Below are positions 1,040 to 36,156 of a DNA stretch of 64,000 nucleotides, piece by piece. This DNA comes from Minisyncoccota bacterium (GTDB lineage Bacteria; Patescibacteriota; Minisyncoccia; Minisyncoccales; RBG-13-42-11), in contig JADHYE010000001.1 of assembly GCA_016782605.1 (NCBI GenBank), forward strand, positions 78,473 to 142,472, in the 5' to 3' direction. The notes under the pieces are model-generated. The model was not told the origin of the DNA and ran no database searches. It saw only the letters and a list, made by a program, of their open reading frames with translations. Each line of letters begins with the position of its first letter. Position 1 is the stretch's first letter. A program made the translations under genes and the position numbers.

Positions 1040-1040
1040 A

Positions 1041-1175
1041 CCCCGTATATCATCTTCCAGTTACTTCGTAATGCGAAGTGAAAGAAGTTTGTTTTATTAT
1101 ATTAAACTCATTTCTTTGTTTTAAATATTGCATGGGATTATATATATTAAGCATTCTGGAAGTTGTATTACAGGG
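1041..1175. mobile_element. MITE-like element, copy A (135 bp)
   Basis: Left end is CCCCGTATATCATCTTCCAG and right end is CTGGAAGTTGTATTACAGGG. Flanked by the direct repeat CATA (1037-1040 and 1176-1179). The interior is AT-rich. Two more copies occur in this window. Confidence 0.8.
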
Positions 1176-1183
1176 CATATTTC

Positions 1184-4463: not shown

Positions 4464-4778
4464 TTATTTTTCAGGTGTTTCGGCTGCTTTTTCTGAAGCT
4501 TTTGATTCCAATTCTCTCTGCATCCTTCCGCCGTGCCTGCCGAACTTAGTGGTCGGAGAAAATTCGCCCAGCTTGTGGCCGACCATGTTTTCTGCTGCTT
4601 TAACTGTAATGAATTCCCTGCCATTATGGACGCCGAAAGTAAAACCGATCATTTCAGGAGTGATTGTTGACCTTCTTGACCAGGTTTTAATAATTTCCTT
4701 GCCCTCAGGTTTCAAATTCTTTATCTTTTTCAATAATTTTTCGTCCACAAAAGGACCTTTCTTAATTGATCTTGACAT
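4464..4778 (-). CDS. rpsS: 30S ribosomal protein S19
   Basis: [18 protein letters not shown]...GHKLGEF is a canonical S19 sequence. Confidence 0.95.
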
Positions 4779-4779
4779 A

Positions 4780-4911
4780 CCCTGTATATCAACATCCAGG
4801 CATTTTCAATGCGAAAACACTCTGAAGGTTGTCTTTATTTAATAATATATTCAACATAATAATTTTAATTAAGCTTTCAATACGAAGTATTCTGGATGTT
4901 GTATTACGGGG
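4780..4911. mobile_element. MITE-like element, copy B (132 bp)
   Basis: Left end is CCCTGTATATCAACATCCAG and right end is CTGGATGTTGTATTACGGGG. Flanked by CATA (4776-4779 and 4912-4915). The T-to-A change in the left arm is matched by the complementary change in the right arm. Confidence 0.8.
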
Positions 4912-4915
4912 CATA

Positions 4916-19036: not shown

Positions 19037-19075
19037 ATTCCTGACAACTACTCTTAAAAGCTCGGCTTTTCCACA

Positions 19076-19218
19076 CCCCGTATATCAACTTCCAGAACCA
19101 AACTTTTATTCGCAGAACTAATTCTGAATTATTATTTTATATCTTTAATATCCCCCCCCAACTATATTATTTTATTACGTTTGGTTTGTTGCGAATAACT
19201 GGAAGTTGTATTACGGGA
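19076..19218. mobile_element. MITE-like element, copy C (143 bp)
   Basis: Left end is CCCCGTATATCAACTTCCAG and right end is CTGGAAGTTGTATTACGGGA. Flanked by CACA (19072-19075 and 19219-19222). Confidence 0.8.
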
Positions 19219-19227
19219 CACACCCGA

Positions 19228-34923: not shown

Positions 34924-36156
34924 GTGAATAAATTCAAATTCCTGGACAAAAACGATATTTCTAAACTACCCAAAACCTCTGGCGTTTACGCTTTTTTTAC
35001 CCGCCGAAGCCTCGGCGAAGGCAGGAAAAAAGGAAAACAAATACTTTACGTCGGCAAAGCAACCAACATTAAAGAAAGAGTGAAAAACCACAAAAAACTT
35101 CTCAGTCAGGCTGAAAAAATAGGATATATTAAAACCGATTCTGAAATCGAAGCTTTGATTTTAGAAGCAAGCTTAATCAAAAAATACCGGCCGAAATACA
35201 ACGTTGCTTGGAAAGACGACAAGAATTATTTTTTTGTCGCAGTAACAAAAGAGAAATTTCCCGGAATTCTCATCACACACCAAACAAAACAGAAAAACAA
35301 ATACCTTGGCCCTTTTGTGGACGGTTCTTCCTTAAAACAAGTTTTAATAATCCTAAGAAAGGTTTTCCCTTTTAGAACTTGTACAACCCTGCCGAAGAAG
35401 CCCTGTCTTTGGCATCAACTTAACCTCTGCCCTGCCCCCTGTCTGACAAAAACAAAAAACTTATGTCAAAAAAACGCTAATAATATTTTAAAGATACTCC
35501 AAGGAAGAAAAAACCAGGTTTTAAATAACTTAAAAAAAGAAATGAAAATAGCTTCCAAAGAACAAAATTATGAAAAAGCAGCAAAGACAAGAGATAAGAT
35601 AGTTTATTTGGAAAGAATAATGCGCAACGCCAGAATTTTCGAACCCAATAAAGCTGATTCAACGCTTCAATCAATCTTAAAAGCTGAAAAACCGATTTCA
35701 AGAATCGAAGCTTACGATATATCCAATATCCAGGGACAGGAAGCAACAGGCTCCATGGTAACTTTTATTCAAGGAAAACCAAACAAAAGCTTTTACCGCA
35801 AATTCAAAATAAAGCTCCAGGCTAAGCCCAATGACGTGGCCATGATAAAAGAAGTCTTATCCCGCAGATTGAAACATAAAGAATGGCCATGCCCTGACTT
35901 AATATTGATTGACGGCGGCATCGCCCAATTGAATACTGCCATTAAAATGAAAAATGAAATAAACAAAAATATAAAAGCAGTGAGTTTGGCGAAAAAACAA
36001 AACAAACTTTTCATTGAAGGAAGAAAAAAGCCAATCCTGTTAAAAACTTTGCCTAAAGAAATCTTTAATCTTGTACTGCATTTGCGCGACGAGGCTCACA
36101 GGTTTGCCATAACCTACCACCGCAAATTAAGGACCAAGGCCTTGCTTCCCAGATGA
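34924..36156 (+). CDS. uvrC: Excinuclease ABC subunit C, short form lacking the C-terminal (HhH)2 domain
   Basis: GIY-YIG motif (GVYAFF...ILYVGKATNIKERV), UVR motif (YEKAAKTRDKIVYLE), and endonuclease domain (RIEAYDISNIQG...RDEAHRFAITYHR). Ends at 410 aa. GTG start. Confidence 0.85.
   Translation: MNKFKFLDKNDISKLPKTSGVYAFFTRRSLGEGRKKGKQILYVGKATNIKERVKNHKKLLSQAEKIGYIKTDSEIEALILEASLIKKYRPKYNVAWKDDKNYFFVAVTKEKFPGILITHQTKQKNKYLGPFVDGSSLKQVLIILRKVFPFRTCTTLPKKPCLWHQLNLCPAPCLTKTKNLCQKNANNILKILQGRKNQVLNNLKKEMKIASKEQNYEKAAKTRDKIVYLERIMRNARIFEPNKADSTLQSILKAEKPISRIEAYDISNIQGQEATGSMVTFIQGKPNKSFYRKFKIKLQAKPNDVAMIKEVLSRRLKHKEWPCPDLILIDGGIAQLNTAIKMKNEINKNIKAVSLAKKQNKLFIEGRKKPILLKTLPKEIFNLVLHLRDEAHRFAITYHRKLRTKALLPR

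Follow-up and report, generated by a model that had tools for sequence, protein, structure and literature searches.

The ribosomal-protein operon of a Minisyncoccota bacterium raises the question of how insertions that fall exactly on the start codons of two essential genes can be tolerated. The window analyzed here is a 64-kb stretch (64,000 nucleotides; contig JADHYE010000001.1, positions 78,473 to 142,472, assembly GCA_016782605.1). Within it a preliminary description, made from the letters alone, had noted two MITEs (miniature transposable elements with inverted repeats), one between rplB and rpsS (copy B) and one between rplE and rpsZ (copy A). All coordinates are positions of the window, and all the genes and elements lie on the minus strand (Table 1). 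On balance, A and B appear to be recent, non-autonomous miniatures of a family of very small mobile elements in candidate phyla radiation (CPR) bacteria. Its layout would relay ribosomes from the element to the host gene, and a nuclease encoded by full-length copies is the candidate mover. The parent element, its nuclease open reading frame (ORF), the start-codon targeting and a third element (copy C) all go beyond the preliminary description.

In structure, A and B are MITEs in every respect. Each carries 20-nt terminal inverted repeats (TIRs), as does copy C, and is flanked by a duplicated TATG. As first described, the elements are 132 (B) and 135 (A) nt long, and the duplication creates a new ATG 1 nt after the rplB stop and 5 nt after the rplE stop, where TAG is followed by GAAAT. 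From these ATGs, frames of 41 (B) and 42 (A) codons run to the TGA that both copies have in the distal repeat, leaving 10 nt up to the start of rpsS or rpsZ; translations and coordinates agreed with that account throughout. The interiors (95 nt in copy A) have a GC content of 23 to 24% and, as had been stated, are unrelated to each other; BLAST against all family loci and the window found no relatives of either. Rfam at the gathering threshold identified nothing at the elements and only four tRNAs in the window. Neither relay peptide matched a Pfam family, and both were absent from the gene-call index by exact look-up.

Sites with and without the element were compared. An exact look-up of the S19 protein of the window returned nine contigs, and the flanks were checked in seven. 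All seven, with a 100% identical S19, carried an element-free site (...AAATAATATGTCAAG...) with an rplB-rpsS gap of 1 nt and flanks matching the window, and one S19-identical contig (L002) was also empty at rplE/rpsZ. Filled and empty sites differed by the element plus one extra TATG. Because the empty sites carry a single TATG, this sequence is a genuine 4-bp target site duplication (TSD), and presence or absence of the element is polymorphic at the strain level. Copies A and B are real, recent insertions. For a full-length copy (L083), too, the related contig L100 has an empty site with a single TATG. One metagenome-assembled genome (MAG) carried two 145-bp copies that were 99.3% identical and had unrelated flanks, so movement has been recent. 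In a further pair, the 134-bp copies at L110 (+44) and L115 (-2506) were 100% identical, with upstream flanks 97% alike and downstream flanks unrelated (30%); this pattern could reflect recombination between copies, rearrangement or chimeric assembly.

The wider family was defined by two scans. A pattern with both arms, the ATG flank being optional, was scanned against one genome per species and gave 43 loci, all from MAGs of Patescibacteria/CPR (Portnoy-, Terry-, Yanofsky- and Curtissbacteria plus auto-labelled bins). In metagenomes, a scan for a single arm with an ATG as anchor gave at least 120 loci, and family counts derived from metagenomes are among the matches listed. After arms were paired and duplicate sites removed, at least 144 unique family copies from genomes and metagenomes were retained. 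By arm pairing these fell into size classes of 63 to 69, 120 to 159 (93 unique copies) and 190 to 260 bp and a sharp class of 309 to 315 bp. The family TIRs are 20 bp, with the consensus CCCAGTAATACAACTTCCAG ... CTGGAAGTTGATATACTGGG, and the arms co-vary at six positions. A matched change in both arms of copy B, pointed out in the preliminary description, is real (..ACATCC../..GGATGT..) and marks a subfamily present in other genomes too. Arm positions 8 to 10 read ATA on the coding strand in both arms of all paired copies, giving a fixed 3 × 3 mismatch in the stem; the search patterns forced ATA at these positions, and the invariance is partly by construction. It is because of this asymmetry that the 3′ arm contains the TGA, as a perfect complement of the 5′ arm would be stop-free. 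Two unpaired copies had variant 3′ arms (GATATGC and GATGTAC). In IMG/VR viral contigs, five matches to the 5′ arm (L171-L175) were found without an ATG flank or a second arm, three of them in one common ORF context, and these were taken as chance similarity inside ORFs.

The family is located at the start codons of genes, in sense orientation. Gene context at family loci was called by ORF length, without a gene caller, a host start being an ORF of ≥60 codons from the 3′ ATG. In a scan that did not depend on ATG, 39 of 47 copies (∼83%) duplicated an ATG, 26 of the 47 as TATG/TATG; the other 4-mers duplicated were TGAA, CACG, TAAA, TGTA, TTTG and TGTG. Since such non-ATG duplications occur, the 4 bp derive from the target. 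Orientation relative to the ATG was constant, and an ORF of ≥60 codons began at the second ATG in 79 of the 85 miniature copies that could be assessed and in 29 of the 31 full-length ones. TATG occurs in the window at 260 coding and 37 intergenic sites and at 31 ORF starts. If TATG were used at random and the coding hits were then lost, about half of the insertions would be off start codons, and both orientations would occur. Targeting is tighter than this, whether through mechanism or selection. The preferred target of the element is also the commonest start context of the host. Among ATG-initiated long ORFs in the window, T occupied position -1 (TATG) in 31 of 45, as judged from longest-ORF starts. 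Shine-Dalgarno (SD)-like 4-mers preceded 15 of 137 element-bearing starts, and the host lineage seems to make little use of SD sequences.

The 309- to 315-bp class represents the full-length element, with 31 unique copies of 300 to 325 bp. In 28 of these, the frame from the flanking ATG was open for 100 to 105 codons as far as the TGA of the repeat. The ORF fills the element end to end, overlapping both repeats, and encodes MPSNTTSS-FFYVYVLES..YIGYTNNLKRRLEEH...YFEG...DAKRRE.YLKTTQGRRFLGLRL...FGSGS, in which MPSNTTSS is encoded by the 5′ repeat. It matched the Pfam GIY-YIG family PF01541 at 60.9 bits (cut-off, 22.6; E value, 1.5e−16) over profile positions 2 to 74 of 78, with weak matches to SegE_GIY-YIG and T5orf172. 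Across 35 homologs, Y14, Y25, R35, E38/H39 and E59 were invariant and I26 and G27 were ≥90% conserved. An AlphaFold2 model (confidence score pLDDT, 75) placed strands at residues 11 to 18, 24 to 29 and 53 to 61 and helices at 32 to 40 and 64 to 75, as expected of the β-β-α-β-α GIY-YIG fold, with the seven repeat-encoded N-terminal residues disordered. By sequence, the nearest solved relatives were the UPF0213 proteins BH0048 and EF2693, and the structure 1ZG2 was matched with an E value of 2.5e−7. Foldseek matched 1ZG2 (UPF0213) and the Slx1 entries 6SEH, 4XLG and 7CQ2 ahead of I-TevI and UvrC. The median ratio of nonsynonymous to synonymous substitution rates (dN/dS) was 0.11 over 90 pairs, indicating strong purifying selection. 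Homologs formed 882 clusters of ∼101 amino acids, which their sources name "GIY-YIG nuclease family protein," "putative endonuclease" or "excinuclease ABC subunit C." The ORF is thus predicted to encode a ∼100-amino-acid GIY-YIG nuclease of the UPF0213/Slx1 type.

A graded deletion series joins the full-length and miniature size classes, which are alike in repeats, target and orientation. When a profile of the full-length element was applied, ORF remnants were identified in 52 of 86 miniature copies; the other 34, A and B included, keep only the repeats. As an extra cistron, the full-length element lies within 10 nt of the stop of an upstream gene in 13 of 31 copies. At L176-L185 it stands between an HD-domain gene and a DUF72 gene, and the DUF72 ATG follows 10 nt past the TGA. 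Here (1501-1511) the HD-domain gene ends at a TAA within the 5′ repeat of the element (..CAG TAA, frame 2). The repeat, through this TAA, supplies a stop for upstream genes that formerly overlapped the start codon. A look-up of P0107 for identical nucleases elsewhere yielded one and the same locus, recovered from many samples. In the minus-strand array at L074 (oriented positions 59 to 657), a 309-bp full-length element is followed in tandem by two elements of 141 bp and then by a host ORF of 447 codons; TATG alone separates the elements, and each ORF ends at a TGA 10 nt before the next ATG. Insertion recreates the target each time, so arrays of this kind can build up.

We infer that the GIY-YIG protein is the obvious candidate for the enzyme that moves these elements. 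Alternatively, the ORF could be a passenger, or serve some role other than movement, while a conventional transposase encoded elsewhere acts in trans. In favor of such a transposase, a single-domain nuclease of 100 amino acids with no recognizable DNA-binding domain is an unlikely complete transposase, repeats with a TSD are classic for DDE enzymes, and the 64-kb window contains MITEs and no full-length copy. A tblastn search of the window with the nuclease gave a single weak, GIY-YIG-like match (34975-35121), which we take to be uvrC. However, when repeat pairs up to 6 kb apart and lone repeats were examined at >160 loci, nothing above ∼370 bp was enclosed, and the end-to-end ORF that overlaps both repeats is under strong purifying selection. 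Asymmetric targets used in one orientation, such as TATG here, are also atypical of the DDE transposases of insertion sequence (IS) families. Movement in trans is therefore considered unlikely, though with some claim to attention. A free-standing GIY-YIG homing endonuclease gene was ruled out by the lack of a DNA-binding domain, the presence of repeats and a TSD, and the many unrelated downstream genes. Extending the candidate role of the nuclease to its limit, the 309- to 315-bp element could be a complete autonomous transposon, the smallest known, with a ∼100-amino-acid GIY-YIG nuclease as its transposase, a catalytic class foreign to described prokaryotic IS. Lacking its own promoter, ribosome-binding site and, in some copies, start codon, it would capture initiation at TATG starts and return the ribosome by way of the stop in its repeat, and the miniatures would be selected to keep this relay. 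This full proposal is tentative, and we hold it with less than even confidence.

How the host genes might be translated is suggested by the RNA. The repeat stem pairs UAUG with UAUG, with minimum free energies of -36 to -37 kcal/mol (z = -4.7 and -5.6), and the host ATG lies within this stem. No GGAGG-type motif was found 5 to 10 nt before the rpsS or rpsZ ATG; the 3′ repeat has only a GGAWG 14 nt upstream, in a lineage that seldom uses SD sequences. At the empty rplB/rpsS junction (TAAtATG), the only candidate is an AAGGAG 20 nt before the ATG, with no SD at usable spacing, so coupling to rplB was probably what rpsS depended on until the element arrived. In A, B and 28 of 31 full-length copies alike, 10 nt separate the TGA from the host ATG. 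Given this geometry, ribosomes recruited by the leader of the host gene would start at the first ATG instead. They would then cross the element, making the nuclease in full-length copies and melting the stem that buries both ATGs; because the two UAUG copies pair in the stem, translating the first cistron would unmask the second start. Termination at the TGA would leave the host ATG inside or just past the ribosome footprint, allowing reinitiation on the host gene, and the element could be expressed from host signals with translation of the host gene maintained. What A and B carry as a relay ORF is the architecture of the family, the coding frame of the parent element, kept in phase and stop-free though the nuclease sequence has been replaced by unrelated AT-rich DNA. 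We infer this passage of ribosomes from element to host gene from the geometry and from the coupling established in bacterial operons.

Whether the relay frame is under selection was assessed across the miniature copies. Shuffling the interiors left the frame open to the TGA of the repeat in 4.5% (B) and 4.9% (A) of trials, in line with the chance of a few percent per copy that had been estimated by hand. The window pair alone carries little weight; it is the family-level pattern that carries it. Among 88 unique copies of 100 to 159 bp with a start codon, 23 had stop-free interiors versus 6.2 expected from shuffles, and 22 of the 23 were in phase 0, the phase that ends at the TGA. Weighted by clusters of interior similarity, 12.75 of 41 were open versus 2.9 expected. 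The other forward frames were open in 6 and 8 of 86 copies. Lengths divisible by 3 were over-represented (44 of 88; P = 9e−4). Repeat-only copies were open in 11 of 34 cases versus 2.5 expected, made up of 6 of the 11 that lie at junctions of ≤10 nt and 5 of the 23 that do not, and these open frames are not owed to a surviving ORF, since no ORF fragment remains. A further open copy was identified at a ribosomal-protein junction (L13/S9; L137). Overall, the sequence pattern of the miniature copies favors some selection for the relay frame, and there is probably an advantage in keeping it where a host gene relied on coupling, for example at rplB/rpsS.

Several observations weigh against this interpretation. 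Where a copy lay ≤10 nt from the stop of the upstream gene (a tightly coupled site), 8 of 19 frames were open in phase versus 14 of 69 elsewhere, a difference that fell short of significance (P = 0.07). Among in-phase copies alone the values were 8 of 10 versus 14 of 34 (P = 0.069), the contrast was weaker when cluster weighted, and enrichment at coupled junctions is only suggestive. The expectation that other intra-operon copies would also keep the frame failed, as 11 of 19 tightly coupled copies were closed or out of phase. Closed cases, checked with Pfam, include the junction of the rpoA C-terminal domain with L17 (rpoA/rplQ; 146 bp, 11 codons), MreB/MreC and the junction before SecG. The relay frame is not obligatory at coupled junctions, and given such closed copies some other route to translation of the host gene must exist. 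Hence the earlier idea that the insertions are tolerated through the relay frame stands in part: the frame is the architecture of the family and is open above expectation, but more than half of the coupled copies do without it. With a base rate of 25% for open in-phase frames, two or more of three being open in the window has a P of 0.16. Reverse-strand frames were open in 8 to 16 of 86 copies, so the shuffles somewhat understate the background. In 27 of 31 full-length copies the ninth codon of the nuclease ORF is GTG or ATG; the nuclease may have its own start there, in which case a start codon need not be captured, although ribosomes that began at the flanking ATG would also be in frame. The family counts are lower bounds, the metagenome scan depended on ATG, and copies within subfamilies share ancestry and are not independent. 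Weak promoter-like hexamers also occur in A (1125->1096, TTTAAA-18-TATAAT) and in B (4880->4853, TTGAAA-16-TATGTT).

One reading of these points is that the open frames in A and B are incidental, products of chance and ancestry, and that the host genes are translated otherwise. The stem could loop out the element and place the leader by the second ATG, or initiation could occur afresh on AT-rich mRNA. Closed or out-of-phase copies before rplQ, mreC and secG agree with this, as do the base rate, the stability of the repeat stems and the lack of a significant context effect. Yet the excess of open frames persists in the repeat-only copies, A and B among them, open frames fall almost entirely into the phase with the TGA at its end, the other forward frames are rarely open, and a stem that buries the host ATG should hinder fresh initiation. 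Incidental frames therefore seem a rather unlikely explanation, if a serious one. The hexamers invite a different account, in which a promoter in the AT-rich interior re-expresses rpsS and rpsZ and so makes the insertions tolerable. The regional count of such hexamers (10) was within the shuffle expectation (6.8 ± 2.5), as for DNA of 23% GC, the elements lie inside a long co-oriented operon in which transcription is not limiting, and a promoter would not solve initiation at an apparently SD-less ATG at the foot of a 20-bp stem; we regard this account as improbable. The frames might also encode functional micropeptides, being open and sharing an MPxNTTS start. The common residues are the repeat read in frame, however, neither of the A and B interiors resembles the other or that of any further copy, and the Pfam search was negative. 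With only repeat-encoded residues in common, a micropeptide function was rejected as very improbable indeed.

Size and phase variants show how the relay layout varies at the short end of the family. The 63-bp copies L101 and L165 have little beyond the two repeats and keep the in-phase frame to the TGA. The 68-bp copies L084 and L156 (length mod 3 = 2) read in frame into the host ATG, which would add ∼24 residues; in-frame fusion to the host ORF was found only in these two. The 69-bp copy L080, also little more than two repeats, lies on the minus strand (oriented positions ∼607 to 690), and the end of its 3′ repeat is partly duplicated (..GTTGATATACGGGGTTGATATACGGGGTATG), which could be the footprint of an aborted or nested event.

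The family resembles the Correia, ERIC, RUP and BOX MITEs, which are co-transcribed within operons, in being short, bounded by TIRs and a target duplication, present in many non-coding copies and able to form stable RNA hairpins in transcripts; a review of prokaryotic MITEs treats these elements (PMC10969869). Those elements have symmetric or loose intergenic targets, whereas the present family uses the start codon itself in one orientation, with an end-to-end frame and a stop fixed at 10 nt ahead of the host ATG. The parent of the family is a nuclease gene of 312 bp rather than an IS with a DDE transposase. Rickettsia palindromic elements and ORF-carrying ERIC and BOX elements are described in the same review as palindromic, with one open frame and insertion that spares translation (PMC10969869). 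The Rickettsia elements insert within genes and are translated in the host protein, unlike A and B, which are separate upstream mini-cistrons ending before the host ATG. The mycobacteriophage elements MPME1 and MPME2 are 439 bp, with short inverted repeats and independent insertions in closely related genomes, as their description states (PMC3029335). Instead of a TSD they leave a 6-bp insertion of unknown origin, and they show no tie to start codons. At 309 to 315 bp versus 439 bp, the present element is the smaller one, and it is resident in CPR chromosomes. Sampson and colleagues reportedly found in 2009 that an MPME has a single small ORF with no relation to known transposases; to our knowledge, it is not a GIY-YIG protein.

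Homing endonuclease genes of the T4 Seg/Mob and I-TevI types are likewise selfish GIY-YIG genes wedged between host genes. They differ in having a separate DNA-binding domain, in spreading to cognate alleles by repair and in lacking inverted repeats and target duplications, whereas the present protein is a bare catalytic domain of ∼80 amino acids with tails, and its element lies before many unrelated genes. UPF0213 (YhbQ/BH0048) and Slx1 are the best sequence and fold matches to the nuclease. Slx1 works with Slx4 on branched DNA, and we know of no UPF0213 protein described as mobile. The proposed relay is akin to termination-reinitiation coupling, including that of ribosomal-protein operons, in that the stop lies a few nucleotides from a start that seems to lack its own SD and upstream translation would open an inhibitory stem. 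It departs from usual operon coupling in that a mobile element, having duplicated the start codon, provides the upstream cistron. A full-text literature search, which did not cover all journals, identified no description of a repeat-flanked GIY-YIG element or of start-codon MITEs.

Of the results, the parent element and its life at start codons are the most valuable. An architecture that worked in the proposed way would let a mobile element sit on the most sensitive triplet of a gene without silencing it, which would explain how it settles in essential, tightly coupled ribosomal-protein operons at ∼90% coding density. As a natural system, the family would allow study of termination-reinitiation and of the distance to which a start codon can be moved from its leader, with open, closed, out-of-phase and fused copies as natural variants. 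A bare GIY-YIG domain may prove to be a new kind of transposon enzyme, and the element also suggests a lower limit to the size of self-contained mobile DNA. This element probably accounts for hundreds of small CPR genes that carry the label "excinuclease ABC subunit C" or "GIY-YIG nuclease," and annotation pipelines will mis-call starts beside miniature copies.

Table 1. Elements and adjoining genes in the 64-kb window
Feature	Position	Strand	Details
rplB	5695-4916	-	Ribosomal-protein operon; stop TAA 4918-4916
rpsS	4778-4464	-	Ribosomal-protein operon; ATG 4778-4776
rplE	1795-1184	-	Ribosomal-protein operon; stop TAG 1186-1184
rpsZ	1039-854	-	Ribosomal-protein operon; ATG 1039-1037
Copy B insertion, rplB/rpsS	4779..4914	-	132-nt element plus one TATG copy; absent from 7 contigs
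Copy B first TATG	4912..4915	-	0 nt after rplB stop; ATG 4914-4912 opens relay frame
Copy B 5′ TIR	4892..4911	-	CCCCGTAATACAACATCCAG; encodes PRNTTS(R)
Copy B interior	4891-4800	-	92 nt, 24% GC
Copy B 3′ TIR	4780..4799	-	CTGGATGTTGATATACAGGG; holds TGA
Copy B second TATG	4776..4779	-	T 4779; its ATG 4778-4776 is the rpsS start codon
Copy B relay frame	4789..4914	-	ATG 4914-4912, 41 codons, TGA 4791-4789
Copy A insertion, rplE/rpsZ	1040..1178	-	135-nt element plus one TATG copy; empty site in L002
Copy A inverted repeats	5′ 1175-1156; 3′ 1060-1041	-	TIR matches
Copy A relay frame	1050..1178	-	ATG 1178-1176, 42 codons, TGA 1052-1050
Copy C	19072..19222	-	143-nt element 19076-19218 flanked by TGTG/TGTG

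The third element of the window, copy C, is not on a start codon. It lies 5 nt past an ORF for a ferredoxin-like protein of 59 amino acids and ∼90 nt before nrdD, and its frame equivalent to the relay closes after 19 codons. Copy C belongs to a subfamily of 143 to 145 bp, of which members in other genomes share 74 to 78% identity with it. Its interior contains a run of eight G residues (19152-19159, minus strand).

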